A DNA stretch of 64,000 nucleotides from an uncultured Chloroflexia bacterium (lineage in GTDB: Bacteria > Chloroflexota > Limnocylindria > Limnocylindrales > CSP1-4), in assembly GCA_963725875.1 (NCBI GenBank), contig CAVRZZ010000004.1, positions 279,758 through 343,757 on the forward strand, written 5' to 3'. The translations under genes and the position numbers were made by a program. The notes below the pieces were generated by a model. That model had not been told where the DNA came from. It ran no database searches and saw nothing but the letters and a program-made list of their open reading frames with translations. Shown here piece after piece: positions 1-48,205 of the stretch (position 1 is its first letter; every line of letters begins with the position of its first letter).

Positions 1-461
1 CCGTCTGCGTCTCGAACTCGCTGCACCACTTCGCCGACCCGTCCCCGGTGCTCGCCGGGATGCTGCGCGTGCTCCGCCCGGGCGGACTGGTGATCGTCAA
101 CGAGATGTACCGCGACGGGCAGTCCGAAACGCAGACGACCCACGTCCTGCTCCACCACTGGTGGGCGGCCGTGGGCACGGTCCGGGGCGAGGTCCACCGG
201 GAGACCTACCGGCGTGCCGAGATCGTGGCGCTCGTCGAGGGCCTCGGCCTCGCCGACCTGCGGCTCGTGGACCTGGCCGACGCGGACGAAGACCCGCACG
301 ACCCGCAGACGGTCGCGGAGATGGAGGCGGCCGTCGACCGCTACGTCGCGCTCGCGGAGGGGCATCCCGAGCTCCAGGCGCGCGGCGAGGAGCTGCGCGC
401 CCGCGTGCGCGAGGTCGGCGTGCGCAGCGCCACGCAGGTCGTCGCGATCGGCCGCCGCTGA
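1..461 (+). CDS. class I SAM-dependent methyltransferase, C-terminal part (5' end lies outside window)
   Basis: The frame is open from nt 3. Motif '...NSLHHFADPSPVLAGMLRVLRPGGLVIVNE' is typical of the post-II/III region of Rossmann-fold methyltransferases. The ORF table shows only the 48..461 portion. Confidence 0.65.
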   Translation, partial: VCVSNSLHHFADPSPVLAGMLRVLRPGGLVIVNEMYRDGQSETQTTHVLLHHWWAAVGTVRGEVHRETYRRAEIVALVEGLGLADLRLVDLADADEDPHDPQTVAEMEAAVDRYVALAEGHPELQARGEELRARVREVGVRSATQVVAIGRR

Positions 462-476
462 GCCGGACGCTGGCGC

Positions 477-1220
477 TCATCCGGCGGTCGCGGCCGCCGC
501 GAGCGCCGCAGCCACGGCCTGGACGTCCCGGTAGAACGCGGTGGCGCGGAGCCGGTCGGGGTCGCCCAGGCTCGCCTCGTATCCATCGTCGTAGGCGATC
601 ACCCCGAGGAGCGCCACGTTGCCGTCGTCGAGGCGGCCGCCGGCCCCCCCGGCCCCGTCGCCGTGGGCGAGGTTCGAGACCAGCCCGAGGACGGACAGGT
701 CCAGTCGCCGCAGGACCTCGAGGGTCTTGCGGGTCGTCACGAGCGTGAGCTCCGACGGCGTGGTGACCACGAGGTACTCCGCCCTGGGCAGGTACCGTGC
801 CGCGTCGAGCAGGGTGTCGCCGAAGCCGGGCGGCATGTCGACGACGAGGACGTCGAGGGCGTCCCAGATCGTGACCGCCAGCAGCTCCAGGATGGCGTTC
901 GTGACGTCGCTGCCGCGCAGGAGCGCGGGACGCTCGCCGACGATGCTCGCGATCGACATGAACGTGACGCCTGCGACCCGGTCGGGCACGAGGCCGCCGT
1001 CCTCGTGAAGCCCCGGGCGCGGGACGCCGAGAATCACGTGGTCTGACGGCCCCCAGAGGTCGAGGTCCAGCAGGCCGACACGCTGCCCGTCCGCGGCGAG
1101 GGCCAGGGACAGCCCGACGGCGACGGAGCTCTTGCCGATCCCTCCCTTGCCGCCGGTGATCGCCACCACGCGCCGCACGTCCCGAAGTCGCCGCTCGACC
1201 ACGGCCGGACGAGGATCCAC
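477..1220 (-). CDS. Mrp/MinD (ApbC/NBP35)-family P-loop ATPase; candidate ATP-type HypB-like partner of HypA
   Basis: Deviant Walker A 'ITGGKGGIGKSSVAV', 'LLDLDLWGPS', 'VVDMPPGFGD'. A GTG start lies 6 nt after the hypA stop. It is the C-terminal 248 aa of the 477..2474 ORF. Confidence 0.8.
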   Translation of the reverse strand: MDPRPAVVERRLRDVRRVVAITGGKGGIGKSSVAVGLSLALAADGQRVGLLDLDLWGPSDHVILGVPRPGLHEDGGLVPDRVAGVTFMSIASIVGERPALLRGSDVTNAILELLAVTIWDALDVLVVDMPPGFGDTLLDAARYLPRAEYLVVTTPSELTLVTTRKTLEVLRRLDLSVLGLVSNLAHGDGAGGAGGRLDDGNVALLGVIAYDDGYEASLGDPDRLRATAFYRDVQAVAAALAAAATAG

Positions 1221-1225
1221 CCGCG

Positions 1226-1630
1226 CTACCCGTTGACCGCGACGAGCGAGACACCCCGGCCGCCGGTCACGGCGAAGTCGGGGCTGGAGCAGGCGGGGCA
1301 GTCCACGTAGAGGCCGACCATCTCCGGCAGGAGGTGGATGTTCTCGCGCTCGTCCTCGGGCAGCGCCGCGAGGCTGTCCTGCAGCGTCCAGGACTGCCCA
1401 CACCGCCGGCAGGCGCACCGGGCCAGGTCGGTCTCGAAGGTGAACCGGGTGTCGGCCAGCTCGGGTGCCTGTGCCTGGGCGGCGCTCAGCCCGAACTCGA
1501 AGGCCCCCCGGTCGACCGACTGGAGCTCGCCGAGCCCGATGACGACCTCGCGGATCGTCGCGATGCTGCGCTCGCGGGCGACCTCGACCGCCTTCGCCAC
1601 CACCGCCTCGGCCAGGGCCCACTCGTGCAT
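1226..1630 (-). CDS. hypA: hydrogenase nickel-incorporation/maturation factor HypA
   Basis: Starts 'MHEWALAEAVV', 134 aa. Two Cys pairs, 'CACRRCG' and 'CPACSS', form the zinc site typical of HypA/HybF. Confidence 0.85.
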   Translation of the reverse strand: MHEWALAEAVVAKAVEVARERSIATIREVVIGLGELQSVDRGAFEFGLSAAQAQAPELADTRFTFETDLARCACRRCGQSWTLQDSLAALPEDERENIHLLPEMVGLYVDCPACSSPDFAVTGGRGVSLVAVNG

Positions 1631-1742
1631 CCGATCCTCGTCTCGCGGGCGTCCGGACCGTCACTCTGCGCGGCCGGGCGGCGAGGGCACGCCGCCCCCG
1701 CATGGTACCCGGCCCCGACCGGCAGCCATCGAAGCTCGCCCG

Positions 1743-2290
1743 GTCCCCGCGATCCCCGGCCTCGCGGGCTCCAGCCCGGTCCTGGTCGGCCGCGAGGCGG
1801 AGCTGCGCGCGCTCGAAGAGGCCGTCGCGACGCGTGCCGAGCGTCCGGTGGTGCTCGTCGGCGGCGAGGCGGGCATCGGGAAGACGCGGCTCACCGGCGA
1901 GCTGGTGTCGCGCGCGGTGGCGGGCGGCGCGACGGTCGCCGTCGGCTCCTGCGTGGAGCTCGGCGCCGACCTCCTGCCGTATGCGCCGTTTGTCGAGTCG
2001 CTCGGCCGCCTCGTCGAAGGGCTCGGCGAGGGCGCCGATGAGGTCCTGGGCCCGGCGCGGGCGGAGCTGGCCCCGCTGCTGCCGGGCGCCGCCGTGACGG
2101 ACGAAGACGGCGCGCTGGGTGCCTGGAGCCGGGGCCGGATGTACGAGGCGGTCCGGGGCCTCCTCGACCGGGCGCCCGACCCCCTCATCCTCGTCCTGGA
2201 GGATGTCCACTGGGCCGACCGCTCCACGCTGGAGCTGCTCCTCTACCTGGCACGGCGCCTTCGTCACGGTGGCCGAGGCGATCGACGACG
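1743..2290 (+). pseudogene. N-terminal STAND/AAA ATPase fragment of a large ATP-binding LuxR (LAL) regulator; the frame is lost near 2270
   Basis: Frame 0 encodes 'VLVGREAELRALEEA...VLVGGEAGIGKTRL...LVLEDVHWADRSTLELLLYLARRL' and then degenerates. No canonical start codon was found, and the start is unclear. Confidence 0.5.
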
Positions 2291-4281
2291 ACCTGCTGCC
2301 CGGCGAGCGGGTGCGCCTCCACGCGGCGCTGGCACGGATCCTGCGCGAGCGACCGGATCTTGCGAGCGGCACGTCGGCCGGTGCGGCGGCCGAGCTGGCC
2401 CACCACCTGCTCGCGGCGCGCGACCTCCCCGCGGCGCTCCAGGCAACCGTTCGAGCCGCGGACGACGCCGCCATCGCACGTGCGTATCCGGAGGCTCGCG
2501 ACCTGTACGAGCGTGCGCTCGAGCTCTTCCAGCAGGTGCCCGGGGCCGACGCCCTGGCCGGGATCGATCGCGCGGGCCTCCTGGACCGGGCCGCGGAGGC
2601 GAGCTACCACGCCGGCGACGCCGGCCGCGCGGTCGCGCTCGGTCGCCTCGCGGTGGTCGAGGCGGAGGAGGCGGGCGACACGACCCGGACGGGGTACCTC
2701 CTCGTGCGCCTCACCGAGTGGACGGAGGAGCAGGGCGACTGGCGCGCGATCCCCGCCCTCGCCGAGCGGGCACTGACCCTCGTGCCGGAAGAGCCGCCGT
2801 CGCCCGAGCGTGCCTTCGCCCTGATCGGCCGGGCCTCCGCCCTCTTGCATCAGAGCCGCAACCGCGACCATGCGCAGGCGGCGGCTGAAGCTGCCCACGT
2901 CGCGGCCGCGTGCGGCGCCACCGGCTACGAGGCGATCGCGCGATCCATGCGAGCGACCGGGCTCGTCGGCCTGGCCCGTGACGAGGAGGCGATCGAGGAG
3001 GTGGAGCGCGCTGCGGCGCTTGCCGCGGCATCCGGCGGCACCGAGGAGGCCGTGATCGTCACCGCCAACCGCCTGGCCGTCTACGGGTTCCCCGGTCACC
3101 TCGAACGCCTGGGCGGCGTCCTGGCCGAGGCCCGTCGGGCCTTCGACCGCGAGGGGTCGCTCGTTCTCACCGAGCCATACCTCGACCTCTGGGAGGCCTG
3201 CATCATGGAGTGGCAGGGCCGGCGGTCGGAGGCCGAGGAGCTCATCTCCGAGCACATCGGCCGCGCCGCGGCGGGGCCGACGACACGCAGTGAGCTCCTC
3301 TCACAGCGGGGCGTCCTGCGCGTTCGTCGTGGCCTGCTGGAAGCGGGAGAGGACGACGCGCGCGCCGCTCTCCAGTTCGGCTACGCGGTCTTCGCGGAGA
3401 CCGCCGCCGAGGCATGCGAGACGCTCGCGGAGGCGGCCCTTCTGCGCGGCGACCCGGCGGCCGCCCTGGAACGCGTCGAAGAAGGGCTGGCGGCCCTCGA
3501 GCCGACCGACGACGTGTCGCGGCGGGCGCACCTGCACGCCCTCGGGCTGTGCGTCGCCGCAGACTTGGCCGAGCGATCGCGGGCGCGGCGCGACCAGAAG
3601 CTCGCAGAGGTCGCCTTGGCGGCAGCCGGCCGCCATCGCGAGCGCCTCCAGGCGGCGCTCGACGGCCGCCTGATCGAGGAAGGCGGCGTCAACGATCTCG
3701 TGCGGGCGATGGGCGCATGGGGGCTGGCCGAGGCGAGCCGGTGCGCCGGCGAGCCAGACCCGGACGCGTGGGCCGCGGCTGGCGCGGCGCTTCCGGCTGT
3801 CGGCGAGACCCACCTCGCGGCGTACTGCCGCCTCCGCGAGGCGGAGGCCGCCCTCGCTGGGCCGGGAGACCGGGCTCGGGCTGAACGCGCGCTGCGCGAG
3901 GCACGAGGTTGGGCCGTCATGGTCGGGGCGGAGCCGCTCCTGAACGACGTCGACACCCTGGCGCGACGCGCGCGGCTGGACCTGGCGGGGGCCCAGCCGC
4001 CCGACGGAGCTCCGTCAACGATGGGCGGCCCCACGGCGGCGGCCCCGGACCCGTACGGCCTGAGCCCGCGCGAGCGAGAGGTGCTCGCGCTCCTCGTGGA
4101 CGGGCGGACGAACCGCGAGATTGGCGCCGCGCTCTTCATCAGCGAGAAGACCGCCAGCGTCCACGTCAGCCACATCCTCGACAAGCTCGGCGTGACGAGC
4201 CGTGGTGCGGCGGCCGCGTTGGCGGCTCGTGGCGGACTCGTGAACCTTCCCCCACCCGACCAGCCGGCCCGCGGCAGCTGA
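2119..4281 (+). CDS. LuxR-family regulator, helical/TPR-like region plus C-terminal HTH (C-terminal two-thirds of the disrupted LAL regulator)
   Basis: 720-aa ORF. After the frame change it continues 'AEAIDDDLLPGERVRLHAALARIL...' and ends with the GerE/LuxR HTH 'LSPREREVLALLVDGRTNREIGAALFISEKTASVHVSHILDKLGV'. The first ~50 codons of the ORF are out-of-frame overlap with the N-terminal fragment. Confidence 0.7.
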   Translation: MPGAGAGCTRRSGASSTGRPTPSSSSWRMSTGPTAPRWSCSSTWHGAFVTVAEAIDDDLLPGERVRLHAALARILRERPDLASGTSAGAAAELAHHLLAARDLPAALQATVRAADDAAIARAYPEARDLYERALELFQQVPGADALAGIDRAGLLDRAAEASYHAGDAGRAVALGRLAVVEAEEAGDTTRTGYLLVRLTEWTEEQGDWRAIPALAERALTLVPEEPPSPERAFALIGRASALLHQSRNRDHAQAAAEAAHVAAACGATGYEAIARSMRATGLVGLARDEEAIEEVERAAALAAASGGTEEAVIVTANRLAVYGFPGHLERLGGVLAEARRAFDREGSLVLTEPYLDLWEACIMEWQGRRSEAEELISEHIGRAAAGPTTRSELLSQRGVLRVRRGLLEAGEDDARAALQFGYAVFAETAAEACETLAEAALLRGDPAAALERVEEGLAALEPTDDVSRRAHLHALGLCVAADLAERSRARRDQKLAEVALAAAGRHRERLQAALDGRLIEEGGVNDLVRAMGAWGLAEASRCAGEPDPDAWAAAGAALPAVGETHLAAYCRLREAEAALAGPGDRARAERALREARGWAVMVGAEPLLNDVDTLARRARLDLAGAQPPDGAPSTMGGPTAAAPDPYGLSPREREVLALLVDGRTNREIGAALFISEKTASVHVSHILDKLGVTSRGAAAALAARGGLVNLPPPDQPARGS

Positions 4282-4526: not shown

Positions 4527-5387
4527 TCAGGCCGGCAGCGGCGGGTCGTACTCGACGTCGGTCAGCTCCACCTCGATGTACGGCAGCTCGGTCCCGTCGG
4601 GGAGCGTCCAGACGGCGGCGCCGCTGACGGGCAGGCGGAGGCCCTCGAACTCGCCGTAGGCGTAGGTCGGCGCGGTCCACGGCCGGAGCTCGAACCCCTT
4701 GCCGACCATCGCGTGGCGCTCTGCGCGGAAGGCGACCAGGGCGCCCTCAGCGTCGATCTCGAGCGTGCCGCTCACGCGCAGGTTGCCGTCCGCGATCGAA
4801 ACGCCCACGTGCGTGTCGTCGATCGCCTCCCAGGTCACCCGCTCACGAAGGAAGGCGCTGGGAAACCACGGCATCTCGGAGAGGTGGCGCAGGAGCGAGG
4901 CTCGGTCCATCTCCGGGCCGGCGGCGTCGACGAAGGGGATCAGCGCGCCGGCCTTGATCGTCATGAGCCCGCGTCCCTCGAGGTAGCCGTCGCGGCCGCG
5001 CACGACGGGTAGAGCGGCCGGGCCGACGGTCGCGTCCCAGACGAAGCCCGGCGGCTCGACCGTGTACCACTGCTCGGCGACGAGGGGGAAGGTCATCCCG
5101 CCCGGGGAGGGTCGCATCCGGCAGGCCTGGCGCACGCGCACCGTGTCGACCATCGGGCGACCGACGACGCCGGCGTGGCGCAGGTAGCGCTGGGCGGGCT
5201 CGGGCAGACCGGCCAGCATCACGTCGGTCACCAGCGGCGGGTGCGGTGGCCGCGGCGCCCCGACCAGACGACGACGGTCGTCGGCGACGTCGCGGTCGAA
5301 CCGCCGGGCGGCCGCGACGACCACCGCGGCCAGGCCCGCGAAGACGACCAGCTTGACCAGGAACAGGCGCACGAACAGGCGGAGCAT
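4527..5387 (-). CDS. hypothetical protein with N-terminal TM anchor (DUF-type, function unknown)
   Basis: ATG 'MLRLFVRLFLVKLVVFAGLAAVVV' is preceded by GGAGGTG. The soluble domain of about 250 aa has no recognisable catalytic motif. Confidence 0.6.
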   Translation of the reverse strand: MLRLFVRLFLVKLVVFAGLAAVVVAAARRFDRDVADDRRRLVGAPRPPHPPLVTDVMLAGLPEPAQRYLRHAGVVGRPMVDTVRVRQACRMRPSPGGMTFPLVAEQWYTVEPPGFVWDATVGPAALPVVRGRDGYLEGRGLMTIKAGALIPFVDAAGPEMDRASLLRHLSEMPWFPSAFLRERVTWEAIDDTHVGVSIADGNLRVSGTLEIDAEGALVAFRAERHAMVGKGFELRPWTAPTYAYGEFEGLRLPVSGAAVWTLPDGTELPYIEVELTDVEYDPPLPA

Positions 5388-5454
5388 CGGGGCACCTCCG
5401 CTCGAGATGGTCGGCGGTCGGGCCGGCGTCACGCGAGTGCCGGAGGTCGTCCGG

Positions 5455-5560
5455 CGCGACCCCGGTCGGCCCACGGCGGCCCACAACGGCCCACAAACGG
5501 CCGGCAGCGGCTGGCAACGGCCCACGGGCGGCCCACAACGGCCGGCAGCGGCCGGGCGAG
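5455..5560. repeat. cluster of about 5 direct copies of GGCCCAC(R)ACGGCC(GGCAGCGGC) in the upstream region of the 4527..5387 gene
   Basis: Read directly: 'cggcccacggcggcccacaacggcccacaaacggccggcagcggc...ggcccacgggcggcccacaacggccggcagcggcc'. Confidence 0.35.
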
Positions 5561-5583: not shown

Positions 5584-6357
5584 CTACAGGTCGGCGACGT
5601 CGATGAGGCCGCGGCGGATCGCGTACTTAAGGAGCTCCACCCGGTCGTGGAACCCGAGCTTCTCCATCACGTTCGCCCGGTAGTTGTGGATCGTCTGCTC
5701 CGAGAGGTGGAGCGTCCGGGCGATCTCGCGGTTCGTGTGGCCGACGGCGGCCAGGAGCATCACCTCGCGCTCACGCTCGCTGAGCGACTCGTACGGATCC
5801 TCGAGCGCTCCGCCGGGCGTCTTGAGCACGTACGTGTTGACCATTCTTGTGACGATCGACGGGCTGACGTACGTCTGGCCCCGGCTGATCGAGCGAAGCG
5901 CCGTCACGAAATCCGAGGCCTGGGCCTCGCGCGTCAGGAAGCCGTCGGCGCCCGCCTTGATCGCCAGCGAGAACTGCTCGCTCGTGCAGCGGCACTCGAC
6001 GGCCAGGATCTTCATCGACGGCTTCGCGGCCCGCACCGCCTCGATCATCTGGAACGACGTGCAGCCCGACCGATCGTACGGCAGGCACTCGGTGATGACC
6101 ACGTCGGCGGGCGACTGCACGATCTCCTCGCGCATCGCGGTACGGTCGACGACCTCGCCGATCACCTCCATGTCGGGCTCGGCGTCGATCACCTCGCGCA
6201 GGCCGACGTTGAGCATTGGGAAGTCGAAGATGGCCAGGAGCACGCCCAGCCGCTTGCCGTTTCCCGGAACGTGCCCGTTCGTGCTCACGCCGACCTCGTC
6301 ACCTCGCGCAGGGCGCCAACCAAGAACGCCCGCGACGCGGGTATCACTATCGGCCAA
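5584..6357 (-). CDS. atypical NarL/FixJ-family response regulator (receiver-like domain plus LuxR HTH) lacking the phospho-acceptor Asp
   Basis: C-terminal GerE HTH 'LSEREREVMLLAAVGHTNREIARTLHLSEQTIHNYRANVMEKLG'. In the receiver domain the expected D is replaced: 'DVVITECLPYD' versus canonical 'DVVLMDLxMP'. The acidic pair is 'DF' and the conserved Lys is replaced: 'GFLTRE' versus canonical 'GYLxKD'. The true start may be an internal GTG near 6288. Confidence 0.8.
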   Translation of the reverse strand: MADSDTRVAGVLGWRPARGDEVGVSTNGHVPGNGKRLGVLLAIFDFPMLNVGLREVIDAEPDMEVIGEVVDRTAMREEIVQSPADVVITECLPYDRSGCTSFQMIEAVRAAKPSMKILAVECRCTSEQFSLAIKAGADGFLTREAQASDFVTALRSISRGQTYVSPSIVTRMVNTYVLKTPGGALEDPYESLSEREREVMLLAAVGHTNREIARTLHLSEQTIHNYRANVMEKLGFHDRVELLKYAIRRGLIDVADL

Positions 6358-6442
6358 CGGTGGGGGTGTCGACGTAGGGCCATCCGTCGCTTCCGGCGAT
6401 CCCTGTGGCCCCTTGCGGACGGGACGAGGGGCACCCCGGCCA

Positions 6443-6558
6443 GCGCCGAGGTACCGTGCCAGGTGCCGTTGACCGGTGCGAGTGCCGCCGCGCCGTGCCG
6501 GGACCGGCGCACCGTGCCGGGTGCCGTTGACCGGTGCGAGTGCCGCCGCGCCGTGCCG
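6443..6558. repeat. 58-bp perfect/near-perfect tandem direct repeat (x2) upstream of the response-regulator gene
   Basis: 'cgtgccaggtgccgttgaccggtgcgagtgccgccgcgccgtgccgggaccggcgcac' occurs twice in tandem. The ORFs at 6476 and 6534 share the identical N-terminus 'MRVPPRRAGTGA' as a consequence. Confidence 0.7.
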
Positions 6559-6600
6559 GGACCGGCGCGCAATGCCGGGGCCGAGGGCAAGTCCTGCCCG

Positions 6601-7377
6601 TCAGTTCGACTGGACCCCCTTGCCGTGGCAGAACGCGCACATCCCCTCGAACGCCTTCAGGTCGTGGGGCGCGACCCGCGGCTGGTCCGGCGACGGGAGG
6701 TGACACGACGTGCACTGCGCGTCCGTGCGCGTGGCGTGGTCCTCCGGCACGGCGCCGACCTTCGCCGCGACGTGACAGGTGAGGCACTTGCCGTCGGTCG
6801 GGGTCGGGTGCGGATAAGCCGCCGCCGGTTGCGAGGTCCCCTGGTGACAGAGGAAGCAGGTCGTCTCGGAGCGGCCCTTCATGCTGTCGGGCAGGGGGGC
6901 GATCGAGCCGTGGCAGGAGAGGCACTTCGAGTTCGCGGCCAGGGAGTGCGGGCGATCCTCGGCAGCCGGTGTCGTCGCCGTGTGGCAGACCAGGCATTGC
7001 TCGGCATGGATCCCGGTGTGGCCGGGCGCCGTCTGCACGAGCCGGTCGTTCGCGTGACACGACGTGCAGCTCCCCCAGCCCTCGAGCGGGTGACCGACCG
7101 GCGGCACGTTTGCCGTCGCGCCCGGCGTCTTGTGGCAGGCGGCGCAGTCGCTGGTCGGCATCACGGCAATCAGGTTGCCCCCCGACGGCGACGGCGCCGG
7201 CGTCGGCTGCTGCGTCGCCGTCGGCGAAGGGGTCGGCGACGGCGCCACGGCCTGCCGGTCGGCCAGTCCGACGTTGATCACGGCGAGCCCGATGCCCACG
7301 CCAACGCCGACCACGATCGCGACGGCAGCCAGGGCCAGGAGCATGCGGCCGATCTTGCGGGCCATCAGCGCGGCCAC
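6601..7377 (-). CDS. membrane-anchored octahaem c-type cytochrome
   Basis: N-terminal TM 'MLLALAAVAIVVGVGVGIGLAV', a Pro/Thr-rich linker 'PSPTPSPTATQQPTPAPSPSGG', and 8 CxxCH motifs (CAACH, CTSCH, CLVCH, CLSCH, CFLCH, CLTCH, CTSCH, CAFCH) in 258 aa. An alternative ATG at 7365 overlaps the NrfD stop (TGATG). Confidence 0.85.
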   Translation of the reverse strand: MAALMARKIGRMLLALAAVAIVVGVGVGIGLAVINVGLADRQAVAPSPTPSPTATQQPTPAPSPSGGNLIAVMPTSDCAACHKTPGATANVPPVGHPLEGWGSCTSCHANDRLVQTAPGHTGIHAEQCLVCHTATTPAAEDRPHSLAANSKCLSCHGSIAPLPDSMKGRSETTCFLCHQGTSQPAAAYPHPTPTDGKCLTCHVAAKVGAVPEDHATRTDAQCTSCHLPSPDQPRVAPHDLKAFEGMCAFCHGKGVQSN

Positions 7378-8948
7378 CCGTCACTGTCGGTGGCCCCGGC
7401 CTGGGGCGGGGTGCCGATGGACCGCCCGCCCGGTTCGACGCCCGGTTCGACGCCCGGTTCGACGCCCGGTTCGACGTGCGGATCGCTCAGCTCGGCGGGC
7501 GGCGCGACGGCGACGGCAGAGGCGGGGGCGACGGCGGTGGCCACCGGATCAACCGGCGACGGATCGACGGGCGTCGTCTCGACCGGCGCCGGATGGACCG
7601 GCCTTTCGTGCCCGTGACGGTCGTGAGCGGGCTTCGCATCCGTCCTGAGCTCCTCGTCCTCCGACTCCACCCAGGCCACACCCGCGTCCACCATGGAGGG
7701 CGCCGGTTGACTTGACGCGAGGAACCCGCCGGCGAGGTGGCCGGTGTGCTCGCCCATCGGCAGGTACCGCTCGGCAAGGGTGTAGGCCAGCCCGAAGAAC
7801 CCGAATGCGCCGAGCACGATCGCCGTCTCGACCAGCGTCGGCGCGTATTCCGCGAAGGGATCGGAGACGACGCCGCCGACGGCGGTCCCCGGGACGATCT
7901 GGCCGGCGCTGACGAAGATCGCGCGGTCCGCGAAGATCCCGAGGAAGACCAGGCAGCAGGTGGCGAAGAGTCCCGCCGGCGTCCGCGTCCGCGGCAGCAG
8001 CACGAGGACCAAGGGGACGACGAGCCCGAGGCCGATCCGAACGACCCAGAACCAGAACGCCAGCGGCCCGGCGAAGATGGCCCGGTTCGCGTCGGCGAGT
8101 CCGGGGATCGCCCCGTACATCCCCCACAGGATCTGCCAGACGATGACGAGCGCCATGACGACCAGCCCGATCGACATGAGGAGGCGTATCGCCGGGATCG
8201 CCAGGGTGAGGGCCCGCTCGTAGCCCGCCAGCCGGTAGCGGTGGACCAGGTAGAAGACGATCCCGAGGAGCGCCGTGCCCGAGAGGACCGCCATCGTCAC
8301 CATCGCCGGCGGCGTAAAGGCGCCGTGCCAGTACGGCCGGGCCGCCAGGACGGCGAAGACCGCGCCCAGCGTCGTCGGCGCCACGACCGCCGTGATCGAC
8401 GAGCAGACGCAGGCCCAGCGGTGGACGCCCCAGTGGTTGGTGAAGATGCTCCAGACCTCGACCATGAGGAACACCAGGTAGACGCCGTAGAAGACGCCCA
8501 TCCACCACATCGGCGAGAACGGCGACGGGCTGAGCACCGCGCCGAAGACCATGCTGATCGGGTAGTGGAGGTCGAGGGCGATGATCCCGAACGCGGTGAT
8601 GAGGGTCAGCAAGGCGAGGACCGCGTGCCGCTTCTCGAGCGGCAGGAACATCTCGATCCCGAACACGGTGCCCAGCGACGAGGCCAGGCAGAGGCCGCTC
8701 GTCGTGATCGCGAAGAAGGCGTACGCGGTGATGAGGATGCCCCATTCGAAGCTGGGGCTCGTCCCCAGGACCTCCCAGCCGGGGGGCAGGGCGAGCAGTG
8801 CCCCGACGGCGCCGATCGTGCAGAGGACGAGCAGGAAGGCGATCCATGCCTTGAGCGCGCGCGGCATGCTGGCGATGTCGTTGGCGGCGGCGCGCGCGGC
8901 TACCCGCGGGTCGAGGGTCAGGCGGCGCTCGGCGACCTGCGCGGTCAT
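7365..8948 (-). CDS. NrfD/PsrC-family polytopic membrane subunit (quinol-interacting) with a low-complexity cytoplasmic tail
   Basis: Starts 'MTAQVAERRLTL' with ATGA overlap onto the upstream gene. More than 10 predicted TM helices and a typical NrfD-like layout. The C-terminal tail carries (VEPG)4. Confidence 0.8.
   Translation of the reverse strand: MTAQVAERRLTLDPRVAARAAANDIASMPRALKAWIAFLLVLCTIGAVGALLALPPGWEVLGTSPSFEWGILITAYAFFAITTSGLCLASSLGTVFGIEMFLPLEKRHAVLALLTLITAFGIIALDLHYPISMVFGAVLSPSPFSPMWWMGVFYGVYLVFLMVEVWSIFTNHWGVHRWACVCSSITAVVAPTTLGAVFAVLAARPYWHGAFTPPAMVTMAVLSGTALLGIVFYLVHRYRLAGYERALTLAIPAIRLLMSIGLVVMALVIVWQILWGMYGAIPGLADANRAIFAGPLAFWFWVVRIGLGLVVPLVLVLLPRTRTPAGLFATCCLVFLGIFADRAIFVSAGQIVPGTAVGGVVSDPFAEYAPTLVETAIVLGAFGFFGLAYTLAERYLPMGEHTGHLAGGFLASSQPAPSMVDAGVAWVESEDEELRTDAKPAHDRHGHERPVHPAPVETTPVDPSPVDPVATAVAPASAVAVAPPAELSDPHVEPGVEPGVEPGVEPGGRSIGTPPQAGATDSDGWPR
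7425..7480. repeat. 12-bp microsatellite (cccggttcgacg)x4 inside the 3' end of the NrfD-family gene
   Basis: Read directly. Encodes VEPGVEPGVEPGVEPG on the minus strand. Confidence 0.5.
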
Positions 8949-9820
8949 CAGACCACCTCGCCTTCGAGGCCGGTGTACCAGACCCGCGGCCGCGTGCCCA
9001 GGCCCGGCTGCATCTGCCGGACCCGCTTTTCCGTGAGGGCGACGCTCACCTGGCTGGCCGGGTCGCGGAGGTCGCCGAAGATCCGGGCGTTGACCGGGCA
9101 GGCCTCGGCGCAGGCCGGCTCCATCCCGCGCGTGATCCGGTGGTAGCAGAAGGTGCACTTGTCCACCACGCCGGCCACGCCCTTGGGCGTGGACTCGCCG
9201 GCGGGGACGATGTAGCGCGCACCGTACGGGCAGGCGACGATGCAGTATCCGCACCCGATGCAGCGGCCCTCGTCGACGAAGACCACCCCGTCCTCGGCCC
9301 GGAACGTGGCGCTGACCGGGCAGACCCACGTGCAGGGCGGGTTCTCGCACTGCATGCACGTCCGCGGCACGAAGTAGGCATCCCGGATGTCCGCCGGCAC
9401 GCCCGCGTCCTCGGCCGGGAAGCCCTGGCGCCCGCCCTCGGGAGAGGTGATGGTGACGGTCCCGTCCTGGGCGAGGACGTGGAGCTCCACCCAGGTCCGG
9501 TTGATCTCGTCGTCCTCGGGCACGTGGTTCTCGAGCTTGCACGCCTCGACGCAGCGGCCGCAGCCGATGCACGTGGTTGTGTCGATGACGAACGCCCAGT
9601 CGTGGGCCGAGGGGTCGTAGTCCGGGACGGGCGGCACCGGCTCGATCGGCGCCGGCTCGGCCGCCCGCGCGGCCTCTCGCGGCGTGCCGAGCGCCGCCGA
9701 GAGCAGCCTCGCGCCGCACAGCGCGGGGACGGCTGCCAGGCCGACCTGCAGCACGCGCCGCCGCGACAGCGTCGCGCGGGCCACCTGCTCGTCGGTGCCG
9801 GCGATGTCGGTGTCGCTCAT
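8948..9820 (-). CDS. Tat-exported NrfC/PsrB-like 4Fe-4S ferredoxin subunit
   Basis: Twin-arginine signal 'LSRRRVLQVGLAAVPALCGA'. Four Cys clusters (CIGCGRCVEAC, CMQCENPPCTWVCP, CIGCGYCIVACP, CTFC...CAEACP) as in CISM-family iron-sulfur subunits. Confidence 0.85.
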   Translation of the reverse strand: MSDTDIAGTDEQVARATLSRRRVLQVGLAAVPALCGARLLSAALGTPREAARAAEPAPIEPVPPVPDYDPSAHDWAFVIDTTTCIGCGRCVEACKLENHVPEDDEINRTWVELHVLAQDGTVTITSPEGGRQGFPAEDAGVPADIRDAYFVPRTCMQCENPPCTWVCPVSATFRAEDGVVFVDEGRCIGCGYCIVACPYGARYIVPAGESTPKGVAGVVDKCTFCYHRITRGMEPACAEACPVNARIFGDLRDPASQVSVALTEKRVRQMQPGLGTRPRVWYTGLEGEVV

Positions 9821-9830
9821 CGGGACGCTC

Positions 9831-10484
9831 CTACTGGCCGGCCGTGGGCCGCTGGTGGCACGTGAGGCAGACGGCGTCGGCGACCTCCTCGTGTCCGACG
9901 GGGACGGGCTTGAGGCCGGCGGGCTTGTGGCAGGTGATGCAGGCGGGCAGGCTGTCGAGGGCATGCGAGATCTCGGGCGGCCGCACCGCGCTCGCTGCGT
10001 GGCTGTCGTGACAGCCGAGGCAGGGCCCACCCGCGTAGTGGAGGTCCAGGTCGACGACCGGGAAGGCGAGCGGCCTGCCGGGCACCTGCGCGTGGCAGAG
10101 CACGCACAAGTCGGCCGTCGGGGTCTCGATCTCGGCGGCCGCCGCGGCGGCGGCGGCCGCGTCGGTGGCCGTCGCCGCGTGCTTCGCGAGCGGGCCGTGA
10201 CAGCTGTCGCAGGCGACCGTCGCGTGGGCCGACGCCTGCCAGGGCGTGTACTCGGGGAGGTGGCAGGCCTGGCAGACCGCCGGGTCCGCGTACTGCGGGG
10301 CCAGGGCCGCCCACGACCGGGCGCTCTCCTCCGGGTGGTAGCCGAACTCGCCGTAGGCCCACGACGCTGCGACGGCCGCCACGCCGGCGACGGCGACCAG
10401 GGCCACACCCGCCACGGCCAGCCCGATCACGCCCTTCCAGCTCGTGGGGCGCAGCCGCCGCGCGACGGCCCGGAGCTGCGTCAC
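9831..10484 (-). CDS. membrane-anchored hexahaem c-type cytochrome (NrfB/ActA-like)
   Basis: The GTG start overlaps the response-regulator stop (GTGA). N-terminal TM 'GVIGLAVAGVALVAVAGVAAVAA'. Six CxxCH motifs (CQACH, CDSCH, CVLCH, CLGCH, CITCH, CLTCH). Confidence 0.85.
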   Translation of the reverse strand: MTQLRAVARRLRPTSWKGVIGLAVAGVALVAVAGVAAVAASWAYGEFGYHPEESARSWAALAPQYADPAVCQACHLPEYTPWQASAHATVACDSCHGPLAKHAATATDAAAAAAAAAEIETPTADLCVLCHAQVPGRPLAFPVVDLDLHYAGGPCLGCHDSHAASAVRPPEISHALDSLPACITCHKPAGLKPVPVGHEEVADAVCLTCHQRPTAGQ

Positions 10485-11185
10485 AGCTCGGCCGCCTGGA
10501 TGACACCGCGGCGCAGGGCGTACCTGAGGAGGTCCACCCGGTCGTGGAAGCCGAGCTTCTCCATGATCGTGGCGCGGTGGTTGTGCACGGTCTGCTCGGA
10601 GACGTGGAGGGCCCGCGCGATCTCGCGGTTCGTGTGCCCGAACGCCGCGAGGCGCAGGATCTCCCGCGAGCGCTCGCTGAGCGCGTCGTAGGCGTCGGCC
10701 GCCACATCCTCGGGTGGCCGGAGGACGTACGTGTTGACCATTCGGGTGACGATCGCGGGGCTGAGGTACGTCTCGCCCCGCAGGATCCGGTGCACGGCGT
10801 CGAGGACGTCCGACGGCTGCGCCTCGCGGGTCAGGAAGCCGTCGGCCCCGGCCTTGATGGCGAGGGAGAACTGCTCGCTGCCGCAGCGGCACTCGATCGC
10901 CAGGATCTTCGCCGCCGGCTTTGCCGCCCGGATCGTCTCGATGGCCTGGGACGAGACGCAGCCGGTGCCGTCATAGGGGAGGCACTCCGTGATGACGACG
11001 TCGGCCGTCGATCGGGCCACGTCGTCGCGCAGCGCTGCGGGATCCTCGAGGACGCCGACGACGTGGAGGTCGGGCTGGGAGTCGATGACGGCGCGGTACC
11101 CGGCGACGAGCGCCGGGAAGGTGGCGATGCCCAGGAAGACGCCCAGCCGCTGGCCGTCGACCGGCGCGGGCCCACGGTCTCCCAT
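10481..11185 (-). CDS. atypical NarL/FixJ-family response regulator, paralogue of the 5584..6357 gene, also lacking the phospho-acceptor Asp
   Basis: Same 'DVVITECLPYD', 'ILAIECRC' and 'GFLTREAQ' substitutions. The acidic pair is 'AT'. LuxR HTH 'LSERSREILRLAAFGHTNREIARALHVSEQTVHNHRATIMEKLG'. Confidence 0.8.
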   Translation of the reverse strand: MGDRGPAPVDGQRLGVFLGIATFPALVAGYRAVIDSQPDLHVVGVLEDPAALRDDVARSTADVVITECLPYDGTGCVSSQAIETIRAAKPAAKILAIECRCGSEQFSLAIKAGADGFLTREAQPSDVLDAVHRILRGETYLSPAIVTRMVNTYVLRPPEDVAADAYDALSERSREILRLAAFGHTNREIARALHVSEQTVHNHRATIMEKLGFHDRVDLLRYALRRGVIQAAEL

Positions 11186-11206
11186 CGTGCTGCTCGCTGA
11201 CCCGGC

Positions 11207-11533
11207 TCAGCCCTGGGTCGCGGCGCCGTGCGCCCGCTTGTGCAGCACGACTGCCCACACCACCGGCGTGGCAGCCAGGATGATCGCGCTCAGGACCACG
11301 CTGACGGTCGCAGCTTCCTTTCCGACGAAGAAGAGAAGGCCGTAGGTGGCGATGAAGAGGACGATGAAGAGGACGGCCATGCTGAGCACCGTGAGCGCCA
11401 GCCACGGCACGATCAGCGATCGCGCGCCGCCGCCGCCGGGCACGCGCATCAGGGCCACGCCCACGACGAGCAGCCAGATCAGGATCGCTGCCAGGACTCC
11501 AACGCTGTCCATGTCCGTGTCCTCGTCACCCAT
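11207..11533 (-). CDS. small integral membrane protein (3 predicted TM helices), hypothetical
   Basis: 'MGDEDTDMDSVGVLAAILIWLLVVGVALM...'. It lies 21 nt upstream of the response-regulator gene on the same strand. Supported only by hydrophobicity and position. Confidence 0.45.
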   Translation of the reverse strand: MGDEDTDMDSVGVLAAILIWLLVVGVALMRVPGGGGARSLIVPWLALTVLSMAVLFIVLFIATYGLLFFVGKEAATVSVVLSAIILAATPVVWAVVLHKRAHGAATQG

Positions 11534-11749
11534 TCGCGTCGGGCTTGATCCGCCCGACGAAGGTGGACTCTGGGGGTACGGAGCGCCAGAGACTATGGCC
11601 GGTCGGGGTAGAAGTGCCTCAACGTCCGCTATGAACTGGGGCGACGGTCGTGGAGTCACACGGGACGCTCGTCGGAAACTGGGCCACGGCCGTTGCTTTC
11701 CGGCCGACGGCCGTCGACGTCACCGCGACGACGGTGGGGTGTTCGGCCC

Positions 11750-12202
11750 TCAGCCGCCCGTCGAGCGTGAGCGTCCGCGGACCCGCGCGACGCCTCGCGC
11801 GATCCCGTAGCCGATCACCACGGGCGTCCCGAAGAAGAACAGCGCCAGCAGCCCGCTGAACGGGTCGACCGGAACCGGGTTGCCGACAGCTGCCGTGAGG
11901 AGCGGGATCGCGACCAGCCCGGCGACGACCCCGAAGGCCACGAATCCCAGCCCCGGCCACCCGCTCGTGAGGAACCCGGCAAGGAAGCCGGCTGCCAGGA
12001 GGAGGAGCGGCGAGATCAGGACGCCGTTGAGCGCGCATCTCGGGGTGAGGCCGTCGGCGGCGCAGCCGAGGAGGGCGCCACCCAGGAGCAGGCTGCCGAA
12101 CAGCGCCGCGGGACACGCGATGGCCACGAGGACGATCGCGGCGACGTCACGCGCGACGGCTCTGGAACCTCTGCTCACCCGGGCCTCCTCTGCAGCCCCC
12201 AT
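11750..12202 (-). CDS. integral membrane protein, hypothetical
   Basis: 'MGAAEEARVSRGSRAVARDVAAIVLVAIACPAALFGSLLLGG...' with 4 predicted TM helices. No other evidence. Confidence 0.45.
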   Translation of the reverse strand: MGAAEEARVSRGSRAVARDVAAIVLVAIACPAALFGSLLLGGALLGCAADGLTPRCALNGVLISPLLLLAAGFLAGFLTSGWPGLGFVAFGVVAGLVAIPLLTAAVGNPVPVDPFSGLLALFFFGTPVVIGYGIARGVARVRGRSRSTGG

Positions 12203-12319
12203 GATGCGCGATCGATCTCCGTCGATGTGGGCACTTCGGCAGGGTTGCGAGCCTTCGACCCGAGTCTCGACGTGCCCCGGCGACACCCGACCAGGGGCAC
12301 GGGCGTAGCCGCCGTCCGG

Positions 12320-13228
12320 TCAGGCGACGGGGAGCGCCGCGCGCCGTGGCCGCCCGGAGATCCCGAAGCGGGCCGGGCCGGATGCGGGCGGCCGCGCTGC
12401 CCCGCCGACCCGCCCACTTGCGAGCGCCACGGCCGCCAGGAGCATCGAGGCGCCGCCGAACCAGAGCGCGGGCAGGGCAACCATCGCGGCGACCGGGACG
12501 GTCCAGGCCCGGTCCGTCCGGGCGCCCCAGGTCACGATCGCGGCCGCGAACGGGAGGCGCAGCCAGACCGGGATCGGGATCGCGGCCCAGGTCCCGACCG
12601 TCTTGTTCGTGCTCGCCGCCAGCACGTCAAACCAGTCGGCCCACGCCGCGGGGGCGATCGTCCAGGAGACGGCCGCGACCGCCGCCGTCGCCCCCAGGGC
12701 GATCCCCAGGTTCCGCCACTCGTGCCGCACGGCGAACCAGAGGAGCCCGACGCCGGGGGTCACCTTCGTGAGGAGGACGAATGCCCACGCGGCCGGCCAG
12801 CGGAAGCCGGCAACGATCGCGACGGCGAGCAGCAGGTGGATGTTCCCGCCCAGGACCTCGAGGATCGCGAACGCGATCGCGACCGTCCACAGGCGCGCGC
12901 CGCAGAGCCAGCGGATGGCGAGCAGGAGCACCATCGTCCAGGCCGCCAGGAAGCCCTCCCACGGCAGCGCCTTCAGGGGTGCGATCGCCTGCAGGAACGC
13001 CGGTGAGTAGACGTAGGCGATCGGCTGGGTCCAGGTCGAGCGCGCGTACGGGTCAGCCAGGTCTGGGAACCAGTAGCAATAGGCTTCCTGGCCGGTCGGC
13101 CAGGCGGCCTCGGACGGGACCCGGTAGGCGAGAACGACGGCCAGGACGACGAACGCCGCAGCGATCCCCACGGCCTCGCGCCGGATGAGCATCCCAGGTC
13201 GTTGACCGGCGATCCTCGTGATGACCAC
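12320..13228 (-). CDS. polytopic membrane protein, GT87/DUF2029-like putative glycosyltransferase
   Basis: Multiple TM helices and an 'AYCYWFPDLADPYARSTW' loop. A GTG start is at 13228 and an alternative ATG at 13192. The family assignment is tentative. Confidence 0.55.
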   Translation of the reverse strand: MVITRIAGQRPGMLIRREAVGIAAAFVVLAVVLAYRVPSEAAWPTGQEAYCYWFPDLADPYARSTWTQPIAYVYSPAFLQAIAPLKALPWEGFLAAWTMVLLLAIRWLCGARLWTVAIAFAILEVLGGNIHLLLAVAIVAGFRWPAAWAFVLLTKVTPGVGLLWFAVRHEWRNLGIALGATAAVAAVSWTIAPAAWADWFDVLAASTNKTVGTWAAIPIPVWLRLPFAAAIVTWGARTDRAWTVPVAAMVALPALWFGGASMLLAAVALASGRVGGAARPPASGPARFGISGRPRRAALPVA

Positions 13229-13519
13229 CCCCGGGTGGAGAGCTCGCTATGCGTCGGCATCGGCCGGCCACGCACCGGCCGGGCACGCGCCCGCCGGGCA
13301 CATGCCGGTCGACCACGCACCGGCCCGCCGCCAGCATGGTCCGGCAGCGCGCTGGGCCCCAGATCCAAAGGTACCGGACCGATGCAACAGCGGGTGGTGC
13401 CCGATCCGGGTTGGTGACCGACGGCACGGTTCAAGGCCGTCGGAATCGCCCTTGTCGGGGAGGCGCGCGGCCGCGACGGTGAGCATGCCGCCACCGGGGC
13501 GGCGCCACAACGGCCGCGG

Positions 13520-14962
13520 TTGCCGCCGAGGGATGGCATGGCCCACGCCACGAGCAGGGGCGCCTACGGGCACCTCGCGGATCGCCTGAACCGCTTCCCG
13601 CAGGGAGCCCCCCCGTCCGACCTCCTGTACCGCATCCTCGCGCTTCTCTTCAGCGAGCGCGAGGCGGGGCTGGTCGCCCGCCTTCCGATCAAGCCGGTCA
13701 CGCCGGTCGCCGCGGCCCGGATCTGGAAGACGAGCGAAGCCGAGGCGCGCCGCGTGCTCGACGGGCTGGCCTCGCGTGCCGTGCTCCTCGACACGGAGGG
13801 CCCGGACGGGGTCGTCTACATCCTCCCGCCGCCGATGGCCGGCTTCTTCGAGTTCTCGATGATGCGGGTCCGCGACGACGTCGACCAGAAGCTCCTCAGC
13901 GAGCTCTTCTACCAGTACCTCACCGTCGAGGATGACTTCATCCTCAACCTGTTCACCCACGGACAGACGCAGCTCGGACGCGTCTTCGTCAACGAGCCCG
14001 CGCTCGCCGAGAGTGCGGACCGTGCGGCGGGCCCCGGATCCGGTCGTGCGAGCGCCACCGCGGCGCGCCTGTCGGCCGCCCGGCCGCCGGGTGCCGAGCC
14101 GTCGGGTGCCCGGCGGCCGCGTGCCGAGCCGCCTGGTGCCCGGCCGCCCCGTGCCGATGCCGGGCTTCACGTCCTCGACTACGAGCGCGCCAGCGAGGTG
14201 ATCGGCACCGCCGAGCACATGGGCGTCGGCACCTGCTACTGCCGCCACAAGATGGAACACCTGGGGCGGGCGTGCAGCGCCCCGCTGGGGATCTGCATGA
14301 CGTTCGGAGGCACGGCCGACGCGCTGATCCGCCACGGCTACGCCCGGCGCGTCGACCGGACCGAGGGGATGGACCTGCTCCAGGAGGCGTACGACCACAA
14401 CCTCGTCCAGTTCGGCGAGAACGTGCAGCGCTCGGTCAACTTCATCTGCAACTGCTGCGGCTGCTGCTGCGAAGCGATGATCGCGGCTCGCCGGTTCGGG
14501 ATGCTCGACCCGGTGCACACGACCAACTTCCTGCCGCACGTCGGCGACGAGGTCTGCAACGGCTGCGGCAAGTGCGTCGACGCCTGCCCGGTGGAGGCGA
14601 TGACGCTCGTCTCGGCGAACGATCCGGCCAAGCCCCGCAAGCGCCGGGCCTCCCTCGACGCCGACATCTGCCTGGGGTGCGGCGTCTGCACGCGCGTCTG
14701 CCCGACGAAGGGGCTCTGGCTGGAGGCCCGTGCACAGCGCGTGGTCACGCCGGTCGACACGCTCCACCGGACGGTGCTCATGGCGATCGAGCGCGGGCGG
14801 CTCCAGGACTGCATCTTCGACAACCGGGCGCTCTTCAGCCACCGGGCGATGGCGGCGATCCTGGGCGTGATCCTCCGCCTGCCTCCGACGAAGCAGGTCC
14901 TGGCCACGGAGCAGATGCGCTCGCGCTACCTCGTGAAGATCCTGGAGCGGGCCAGCTTCTAG
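13520..14962 (+). CDS. winged-helix plus 4Fe-4S ferredoxin-domain protein with Cys-rich 'CNCCGCCCE' motif (putative Fe-S redox/regulatory protein)
   Basis: N-terminal wHTH-like 'LLYRILALLFSEREAGLVARL...ARRVLDGLASRAVLL'. Two ferredoxin motifs 'CNGCGKCVDACP' and 'CLGCGVCTRVCP'. Extra Cys clusters 'CYCRHK' and 'CNCCGCCC'. Confidence 0.8.
   Translation: MPPRDGMAHATSRGAYGHLADRLNRFPQGAPPSDLLYRILALLFSEREAGLVARLPIKPVTPVAAARIWKTSEAEARRVLDGLASRAVLLDTEGPDGVVYILPPPMAGFFEFSMMRVRDDVDQKLLSELFYQYLTVEDDFILNLFTHGQTQLGRVFVNEPALAESADRAAGPGSGRASATAARLSAARPPGAEPSGARRPRAEPPGARPPRADAGLHVLDYERASEVIGTAEHMGVGTCYCRHKMEHLGRACSAPLGICMTFGGTADALIRHGYARRVDRTEGMDLLQEAYDHNLVQFGENVQRSVNFICNCCGCCCEAMIAARRFGMLDPVHTTNFLPHVGDEVCNGCGKCVDACPVEAMTLVSANDPAKPRKRRASLDADICLGCGVCTRVCPTKGLWLEARAQRVVTPVDTLHRTVLMAIERGRLQDCIFDNRALFSHRAMAAILGVILRLPPTKQVLATEQMRSRYLVKILERASF
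14085..14160. repeat. imperfect in-frame tandem repeat encoding (A)RPPGAEPSGARRPRAEPPGARPPRA inside the Fe-S protein gene
   Basis: 'ccgggtgccgagccgtcgggtgcccggcggccgcgtgccgagccgcctggtgcccggccgccccgtgcc' read directly. It forms a low-complexity insertion between the N-terminal domain and the Fe-S domain. Confidence 0.4.
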
Positions 14963-32488: not shown

Positions 32489-32489
32489 G

Positions 32490-32711
32490 ATGGACCGCAG
32501 GCTCCGCGTGGACTGGATCAAGTGCGACGGCTACGGACTGTGCGGCGACCTCGCCCCGGATCTCATCGACCTCGACGACTGGCGGTACCCGGTCATTCGC
32601 CCGGGCGCGGTCGATCGCGGCGACCTGCACGACGCCCAGCGGGCCGTCGACTGCTGTCCGATGGGAGCGCTCATCCTCGAGCAGGTGCCCGCGGACCGGC
32701 GGACGGCCTGA
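32490..32711 (+). CDS. small ferredoxin (single-cluster, 3Fe-4S/4Fe-4S type)
   Basis: 73 aa. 'MDRRLRVDWIKCDGYGLCGDLAPDLIDL...VDCCPMGAL'. The start is 1 nt after the NuoF-like stop. Confidence 0.7.
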   Translation: MDRRLRVDWIKCDGYGLCGDLAPDLIDLDDWRYPVIRPGAVDRGDLHDAQRAVDCCPMGALILEQVPADRRTA

Positions 32712-47929: not shown

Positions 47930-48205
47930 CGCGATGTCCTCCGGGCCGGCGGCGGGCCCCTGCCCGGAGAGGCGCCGTTCCCGTTCGACCCGCAGCAACG
48001 AACGGGCGGCACTCCTGTTACGGCCAAGCGCCTGCCGTCACGCTCCATGCTGGGGTTCGGGACGTTCGGCCCTCGCCCCGCGCATCACGGACGCCCACGC
48101 TAAGCGGTTGGCGGGGAGCTCTGACACGCGGTCCACGCCCCGGCCGCCCGGACCGCGCCGAGCCACTGGCGAGACCGACCCGCGGTGAAGCCTCAGGAGG
48201 TTCCC

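Follow-up and report, generated by a model that had tools for sequence, protein, structure and literature searches.

The gene pair and its locus

A hypA gene and a gene for an Mrp/MinD-type ATPase lie side by side at one end of a 64-kb stretch of DNA from an uncultured Chloroflexota bacterium (contig CAVRZZ010000004.1). This whole stretch is called the window here, and the pair occupies its positions 477-1630 on the minus strand. The open reading frames (ORFs), the G+C content at third codon positions (GC3) and the Pfam matches all confirm that the two genes are real, as a preliminary description of this DNA had stated. hypA (1226..1630, minus strand) has its ATG at 1630 and a TAG stop at 1228-1226, and encodes 134 amino acids. 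The ATPase gene (477..1220, minus strand) runs from a GTG start at 1220-1218 to a stop at 479-477 and encodes 247 amino acids. GC3 is 0.97 in hypA and 0.94-0.97 over both genes, which is coding-like, and the GC content of the window is 72.5%.

Only 5 nt (1225-1221, minus strand) separate the stop codon of hypA from the GTG, and not 6 nt as first given. The GTG start itself stands, because the N-terminal MDPRPxxxxRRL segment of the ATPase is kept throughout its family, including the crystallised Thermococcus protein. The public gene call for the window ATPase (P0001, 230 amino acids) begins 17 codons late, and both it and the public call P0012 omit the conserved MDPRP...RRL segment. The 5-nt spacing suggests translational coupling of the two genes and a single bicistronic operon.

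By sequence inspection, a Shine-Dalgarno-like GAGGA occupies positions 1639-1635, with 4 nt separating it from the ATG of hypA. The 5' region of the putative operon (1631..1700, minus strand) is shared with a divergent LuxR-family gene. Consensus scans of window positions 1-2600 gave no match to a sigma-70 promoter or to an intrinsic terminator, and they are uninformative because the genome has 72% GC. An Rfam search found no Ni/Co riboswitch or other RNA element upstream of hypA. Both ORFs are intact, and within the Chloroflexota clade described below the pairwise ratios of nonsynonymous to synonymous substitution rates (dN/dS) are 0.23-0.68, values that are probably overestimated because extreme GC3 constrains synonymous sites.

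Identity of the ATPase

The ATPase matches Pfam family PF10609 (Mrp/NUBPL, 1.3e-47). It carries a deviant Walker A motif, GGKGGIGKS (G24-K25-G-G-I-G-K30-S31), and a Walker B motif, D128-M-P-P-G, along with D52/D54; at least 82 of 85 members of the family keep K25, K30, S31, D52/D54, D128 and N183. The Pfam family, the best NCBIfam matches (MrpORP and ApbC) and the public names of the family ('P-loop NTPase' and 'ATP-binding protein involved in chromosome partitioning') would each fit an ApbC/Mrp-type iron-sulfur (Fe-S) carrier, but the protein itself differs from such carriers in several respects. ApbC orthology and the CxxC motif had been named beforehand as the point to check. The window ATPase contains zero cysteines, and the 'ICSNCGH' CxxC segment, which follows 'VENMS' and is carried by ApbC and the true Thermococcus Mrp paralogs, is deleted both in it and in the HypB of Thermococcus kodakarensis (Tk HypB), so an ApbC-type protein is excluded. 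No NCBIfam model passes its cutoff for the family: the window protein scores 135.7 bits with the ApbC model NF008669 (cutoff 348) and 137.3 bits with the MrpORP-type model NF041136 (cutoff 450).

Comparison with known structures points in the same direction. A phmmer search of the PDB returned the ATPase-type Tk HypB (3vx3, 5aun-5auq) at 8.8e-56 across residues 1-237, with 47% identity over the full length, whereas ApbC (8zkc, 1.9e-35) aligned over residues 12-185 alone and the MinD matches were at 1e-11 or weaker. The AlphaFold2 model of the ATPase has a mean predicted local distance difference test score (pLDDT) of 86.4 and a predicted template modelling score (pTM) of 0.89. Its top 12 PDB matches in Foldseek are all ATPase-type Tk HypB chains, with template modelling (TM) scores of 0.81-0.94; against 5auo, 5aun, 5auq and 3vx3 the scores are 0.86-0.94 and the root-mean-square deviations 1.7-2.5 Å, and ApbC trails by eight orders of magnitude.

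The relationships within the superfamily agree with the structural matches. In a neighbour-joining (NJ) distance tree without bootstrap, Tk HypB, the window protein and all other ATPases adjacent to HypA cluster together, and E. coli ApbC, MinD and the Mrp paralogs of Thermococcus fall outside this cluster; this phylogeny is one of the checks that had been proposed, and it went in favour of HypB. A hidden Markov model (HMM) of the family gives its members 255-404 bits and the Mrp paralogs 131-132 bits. The family hardly varies at R4, R11, L12, L50, L53 and H61, or at E112, D139, S156, G219 and L224, where ApbC/Mrp have other residues. On the evidence of its sequence, the window ATPase is an ATP-type (Mrp/MinD) HypB and an orthologue of the T. 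kodakarensis protein; the partnership of such an ATPase with HypA had been put forward in the preliminary description, and sequence, predicted fold and tree all place the protein with Tk HypB.

Two further identities were considered and set aside. CooC/AcsF is ruled out: the CxC Ni motif is absent from a protein that has no Cys, no CooC structure occurs among its PDB matches at E <= 1e-3, and the window holds no gene for carbon monoxide dehydrogenase (CODH). A G3E GTPase HypB was rejected as well, since E. coli HypB gives no phmmer match to the window proteins (E <= 1e-3).

The HypA partner

The HypA of the window matches PF01155 (8.7e-20, 71.3 bits against a cutoff of 28.9) and passes the curated NCBIfam model NF003008 (131.1 bits, cutoff 125). 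Its top PDB match is T. kodakarensis HypA (3a43, 4.6e-21), and bacterial HypAs reach merely 1e-3. The N-terminus reads MHEWALAEA and thus includes the Met-His-Glu (MHE) Ni motif M1-H2-E3; the cysteines of the Zn site, C74/C77 and C111/C114, are present (CxxC...CxxC); and the motif E96-N-I-H99-L-L-P102-E103 lies inside a zinc-domain insertion of about 20 residues, as in Thermococcus. The window protein and T. kodakarensis HypA (3A43) are 37% identical and have the MHE motif, the CxxC...CxxC arrangement and the His-bearing insertion in common, the insertion reading ENIHLLPE in the former and EDIHFIPE in the latter. In E. coli HypA, the segment with this motif is deleted.

These features recur in an alignment of 78 HypAs that adjoin ATPases of the same kind. 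H2/E3 are conserved in 77/78 of them, E96, H99, P102, E103, C111 and C114 are invariant (78/78), and the insertion motif takes the form E-x-[IV]-H-x-x-P-E. By its motifs, the window HypA is a member of the insertion-bearing (Thermococcus-type) subfamily, and H99 is, as aligned, the counterpart of Thermococcus His98. According to reviews, the Ni ligands in the T. kodakarensis HypAB complex are the MHE motif and His98, and complex formation yields a nanomolar Ni site.

Distribution of the pair

A protein search gave 656 matches at E <= 1e-20, the closest homologues (60-80% identity) being from Chloroflexota/Limnocylindrales metagenome-assembled genomes. A scan in which a single genome represented each GTDB species yielded at least 80 loci, and a metagenome scan added 80 further ones. 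The roughly 170 fetched loci (L001-L171) of the locus survey span over 15 bacterial phyla as well as several groups of archaea. The pair was found in Chloroflexota, Acidobacteriota, Planctomycetota, Gemmatimonadota, Myxococcota, Acidimicrobiia, Bipolaricaulota and Cloacimonadota, and also in WOR-3, Stahlbacteria, Fraserbacteria, Spirochaetales, Clostridia, Pelotomaculum/Desulfotomaculaceae and a deltaproteobacterium; its archaeal carriers are Thermococcus, Bathyarchaeia, Asgard archaea and Methanosarcinales/Methanophagales. The rarity of the pair that had been implied at first does not hold, as many bacterial phyla carry it.

The coupling of the two genes is tight across these taxa. In 81/87 loci, hypA immediately precedes the ATPase gene on the same strand, and five of the other six loci are truncated by the end of their contig. 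The two genes overlap or are separated by no more than 30 nt in 74 of these 81 loci. Among the metagenome loci, 73/80 have hypA.

Neighbouring genes were searched for in six-frame ORFs, using E. coli Hyp, Hya and Hyc queries and then HMMs made from the first matches. In 32/82 and 29/86 loci (61/168), genes for hypCDEF, a [NiFe] subunit or a maturation protease lie no more than 10 kb away; about 36% of the fetched loci are therefore linked to hyp/[NiFe]-hydrogenase genes and about 64% are unlinked. The linked bacteria include Acidobacteriota, Planctomycetota, Gemmatimonadota, WOR-3, Stahlbacteria and Fraserbacteria, and further Bipolaricaulia, Spirochaetales, Clostridia and Pelotomaculum/Desulfotomaculaceae, and many of the linked bacterial loci carry complete hypFCDE sets. 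With E. coli HypB as the phmmer query (E <= 1e-3), neither the window nor any of the approximately 170 fetched loci yielded a G3E HypB. Because the linked hyp clusters carry the pair but no GTPase HypB, the bacterial ATPase occupies the HypB slot of these clusters, as in Thermococcus.

Reviews discuss ATP-type HypB for T. kodakarensis only. The survey extends what was previously characterised just in that archaeon to a large and coherent ATP-type HypB family in more than 15 bacterial phyla, which is almost always closely coupled to an insertion-bearing HypA and, in the fetched loci, never occurs with a GTPase HypB. Public resources have no informative name for this family. If hydrogenase maturation is scored by G3E hypB, such organisms would be called HypB-deficient in metabolic reconstructions.

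Comparison with known systems

The best-known relative is the ATPase-type HypB of T. kodakarensis (TK2007, 3VX3), together with its HypA-HypB complexes (5AUN/5AUO/5AUP), as reported by Sasaki 2013 and Watanabe 2015 in the accounts cited in PMC7055735 and PMC13202556. The window ATPase is like TK2007 in its N-terminal DPR...RL segment, deviant Walker A and Walker B motifs, lack of the ApbC CxxC, shared H61, E112, D139 and S156, immediately upstream hypA, and fold (TM up to 0.94). It differs in its host, which is a high-GC, probably aerobic soil-type Chloroflexota and not a hyperthermophilic archaeon, and in its surroundings: the window pair lies outside any hyp/hydrogenase cluster, whereas the Thermococcus loci have hycI-, hycG- and hycE-like genes within a few kilobases.

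With the G3E HypB of E. coli, H. pylori and M. jannaschii, the window ATPase would by analogy share the role of a nucleoside triphosphate-dependent partner of HypA, and it shares the slot after hypA. It belongs, however, to the MinD/Mrp group of SIMIBI P-loop proteins, which is unrelated to G3E, and it has no His- or Cys-rich Ni site. Tk HypB binds no Ni itself (PMC7055735). The ApbC/Mrp/Nbp35/Cfd1 proteins resemble the window ATPase in Pfam family (PF10609), core fold and nucleotide-binding motifs; unlike them, it is free of CxxC and of any cysteine, branches separately and has another partner in the genome, and unlike ApbC it has no N-terminal MIP18/DUF59-type extension.

A further comparison is offered by the isr operon of Acetobacterium wieringae, an operon for a proposed isoprene reductase that encodes IsrA, two HypA, HypB and a ferredoxin (PMC10134865). 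The proposed client, IsrA, is a 901-aa FAD/Fe-S oxidoreductase; the genome has no [NiFe]-hydrogenase or hypCDEF, and 73% of 988 IsrA homologues are found near hypA (PMC10134865). As in the isr operon, the HypA and HypB genes of the window are distant from [NiFe]-hydrogenase genes, but they have no adjacent client or IsrA-like protein, and the HypB is of the ATPase type.

Genomic context in the window and in the Chloroflexota clade

Pfam annotation of about 55 genes and six-frame HMM searches detected no hydrogenase large or small subunit, maturation protease, HypC/D/E/F, G3E HypB, urease or CODH in the 64-kb window, and no IsrA-like multi-Fe-S flavoenzyme or recognisable Ni transporter was found there either. 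The pair is at the far left of the window, where just 476 bp are visible on that side. In 13 close relatives, no hydrogenase or hyp genes occur up to 10 kb on each side, and the earlier statement that no hydrogenase genes are adjacent thus holds for the window and for these relatives.

Judging by the labels of the closest homologues and by synteny, the organism is probably a Chloroflexota of the Limnocylindria/Ellin6529 kind, and the Limnocylindria-like Chloroflexota clade to which the window pair belongs is represented by 17 loci (the window, L001-L005, L016, L084-L086 and L089-L094). Three short clade contigs, all unlinked, were contributed by the metagenome scan. Because the 17 unlinked loci share ancestry, their isolation is one property of a lineage and not 17 independent events. 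Across the clade the pair is conserved at 63-88% identity. In the NJ tree, the clade nests in a high-GC bacterial group with hydrogenase-linked members, its linked neighbours being from Gemmatimonadetes (L056), Acidobacteriota (L009), Planctomycetota (L042) and Spirochaetales (L078).

All-against-all ORF clustering of 82 loci revealed no conserved neighbour of unlinked pairs except the pair itself. The lineage-specific neighbours of unlinked pairs are housekeeping genes (glutamine synthetase, an esterase and a major facilitator superfamily transporter), and purine-catabolism genes also occur among them. Large Pyr_redox_2/Fer4/NuoF proteins are present in 10 loci. They look like hydrogenase electron-transfer subunits, because hyp and/or [NiFe]-hydrogenase genes are also present in 9/10 of these loci.

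In the two closest relatives (L001 and L084), a Pyr_redox_2 gene is positioned 8 nt upstream of hypA. It encodes a simple flavoprotein of 454 amino acids that has no Fe-S domains, and the gene is missing from the window, which has the opposite-strand LuxR gene in that place, and from the other clade loci. As a candidate for an IsrA-like client it was rejected on both counts, that is, its restriction to two relatives and its lack of Fe-S domains.

Proposed function and alternative explanations

The identity and orthology of the two genes, the conservation of their Ni, Zn and nucleotide residues, and the coupling of hypA to the ATPase gene across taxa are observed directly. If the window pair works like its structurally solved homologue from T. 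kodakarensis, its mechanism would be as follows. An ATP-bound HypB dimer would bind two HypA molecules, and this binding would place H99 of the HypA zinc-domain insertion beside the N-terminal Met-His-Glu motif. The resulting high-affinity Ni site would capture cytosolic Ni, and the complex would dissociate upon ATP hydrolysis. The ATPase would in this way stand in for the G3E GTPase HypB. We consider it probable that the pair is a bicistronic Ni-insertion module of the Thermococcus type, whose client hydrogenase and hypCDEF are presumed to be encoded elsewhere in the genome. The client enzyme would most likely be a [NiFe]-hydrogenase outside the window. For the class Ellin6529/Limnocylindria (also 'Edaphomicrobia' or 'Eulabeiota'), published surveys report group 1l [NiFe]-hydrogenases that serve atmospheric H2 oxidation, and hydrogenase clusters located apart from other clusters, which makes a distal hydrogenase client plausible.

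Several points weigh against this proposal. Neither the 64-kb window nor any of the 17 clade loci has a hydrogenase or hypCDEF gene nearby, and since 17/17 loci are unlinked there is no direct genomic link to hydrogenase within the clade. The same surveys report rather few hydrogenases per genome for Ellin6529/Limnocylindria. Finally, the ATP-dependent complex with HypA, the raised Ni affinity and the HypA-stimulated ATPase activity are all known from T. kodakarensis biochemistry alone.

An alternative, which we regard as unlikely while giving it some weight, is that the pair is a genuine HypA/ATPase-HypB chaperone that serves a non-hydrogenase Ni client, or general Ni buffering, in this clade. 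The uniform lack of hyp or hydrogenase neighbours and the small number of hydrogenases reported for the lineage would fit such a role, as would the sporadic metal-related neighbours of the pair (a FUR-family regulator in L085, FeoB in L004 and VIT1 in L090). There are also precedents: the isr operon carries HypA/HypB in a genome without [NiFe]-hydrogenase or hypCDEF, hypA lies near most IsrA homologues, and the HypA of H. pylori also serves urease, according to reviews. However, no candidate enzyme is conserved beside the unlinked pairs, and neither a urease nor a CODH nor a multi-Fe-S flavoenzyme resembling IsrA was found in the window. The clade falls among bacterial members with a hydrogenase link, group 1l hydrogenases located apart from other clusters are reported for its class, and being unlinked is in any case the state of about 64% of all family loci. 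The preliminary description had taken the isolation of the pair as a sign that it possibly serves another Ni enzyme. This deduction finds no support, in view of the unlinked majority, of the remaining loci, in which the pair sits in hypCDEF/[NiFe] clusters without a GTPase HypB, of the missing alternative client and of the [NiFe]-hydrogenases reported for the class. A more specific version, in which the clade HypAB is uncoupled from hydrogenase and acts for another Ni client or as a buffer, perhaps tied to the block of LuxR, multihaem cytochrome and NrfD genes described below, seems to us quite improbable. If the unlinked Chloroflexota pairs did serve another enzyme, the short list of non-hydrogenase HypA clients would grow.

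It is still less probable that the pair is a decaying remnant that was left after the loss of a hydrogenase and now has no function. Such decay could account for a pair unlinked to any client and for a neighbouring LuxR-family gene that looks frame-shifted. Yet both ORFs are intact, their GC3 is typical of coding sequence in this genome, all invariant family residues are kept, the pair is conserved across a clade of 63-88% identity, and dN/dS is 0.23-0.68, which is probably an overestimate.

It is scarcely credible that the ATPase adjoins hypA by chance and is a carrier of Fe-S clusters of the ApbC/Mrp type or some other ATPase related to MinD/ParA, in view of its missing cysteines and CxxC segment, its failed NCBIfam scores, the partial alignment of ApbC against the full-length alignment of Tk HypB, its place in the NJ tree, the absence of CooC among its PDB matches (E <= 1e-3) and the hypA adjacency, which is kept in about 95% of roughly 170 loci.

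Other features near the pair

The LAL-type LuxR-family regulator that diverges from the pair (window ~1700-4281, plus strand) appears disrupted and is either a pseudogene or the product of an assembly error. Its AAA/P-loop N-terminus is in the frame of ORF 1338-2888, and its TPR and GerE parts are in ORF 2119-4281; the frame switches near 2250-2270, and the usual middle region is seemingly missing. This disrupted gene sits where L001 and L084 carry Pyr_redox_2 upstream of hypA. A DUF6544/DUF6920 protein is syntenic with the pair (window 4527-5486, minus strand; L001:7283-8143; L084:7267-8130).

A conserved multihaem block, without a molybdopterin or hydrogenase catalytic subunit, extends over window positions 5584-11533 on the minus strand. 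In the direction of transcription, it encodes a three-transmembrane protein of about 105 amino acids (11207-11533), a LuxR-type response regulator (10481-11185), a multihaem cytochrome c (9831-10484), a 4Fe-4S HybA/NrfC-like protein (8948-9820), NrfD (7365-8948), a cytochrome with eight CxxCH motifs (6601-7377) and a second LuxR-type regulator (5584-6288), all on the minus strand. The multihaem/NrfD block also occurs at L086:11025-16784, L090:10973-17204, L091:11357-16704 and L003:4120-4998. It is beside the pair in five clade loci, directly downstream on the same strand in three and 4 kb upstream in the window.

Several genes with metal-related annotations are found near the pair in other loci. 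FeoB is present in four loci of three phyla (L004, at 11256-13706, L012, L044 and L059), a FUR-family regulator is divergent from hypA at L085:8936-9442, and a VIT1 iron/manganese transporter is encoded at L090:3984-4685. A stand-alone NuoF-like protein (Complex1_51K plus NADH_4Fe-4S) followed by a Fer4_15 ferredoxin, with no other Nuo or hydrogenase subunits alongside, is encoded at window 31241-32711 (plus strand), and the same unit occurs at L091:5356-6839, 3 kb from hypA.

Farther from the pair, window positions 22480-26382 (minus strand) encode a 1300-aa protein in which an OmpR-type winged-helix domain is joined to BTAD, to an nSTAND1 NTPase and, at the C-terminus, to a periplasmic solute-binding-protein domain, an unusual architecture for a SARP/STAND regulator. 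The sole Rfam match in the window is a c-di-GMP-II-GAG riboswitch (RF03169) at window 48105-48189 on the plus strand (66.9 bits, E 3.5e-11), which immediately precedes a gene for a subtilase S8 with an I9 inhibitor domain (48206-49390).

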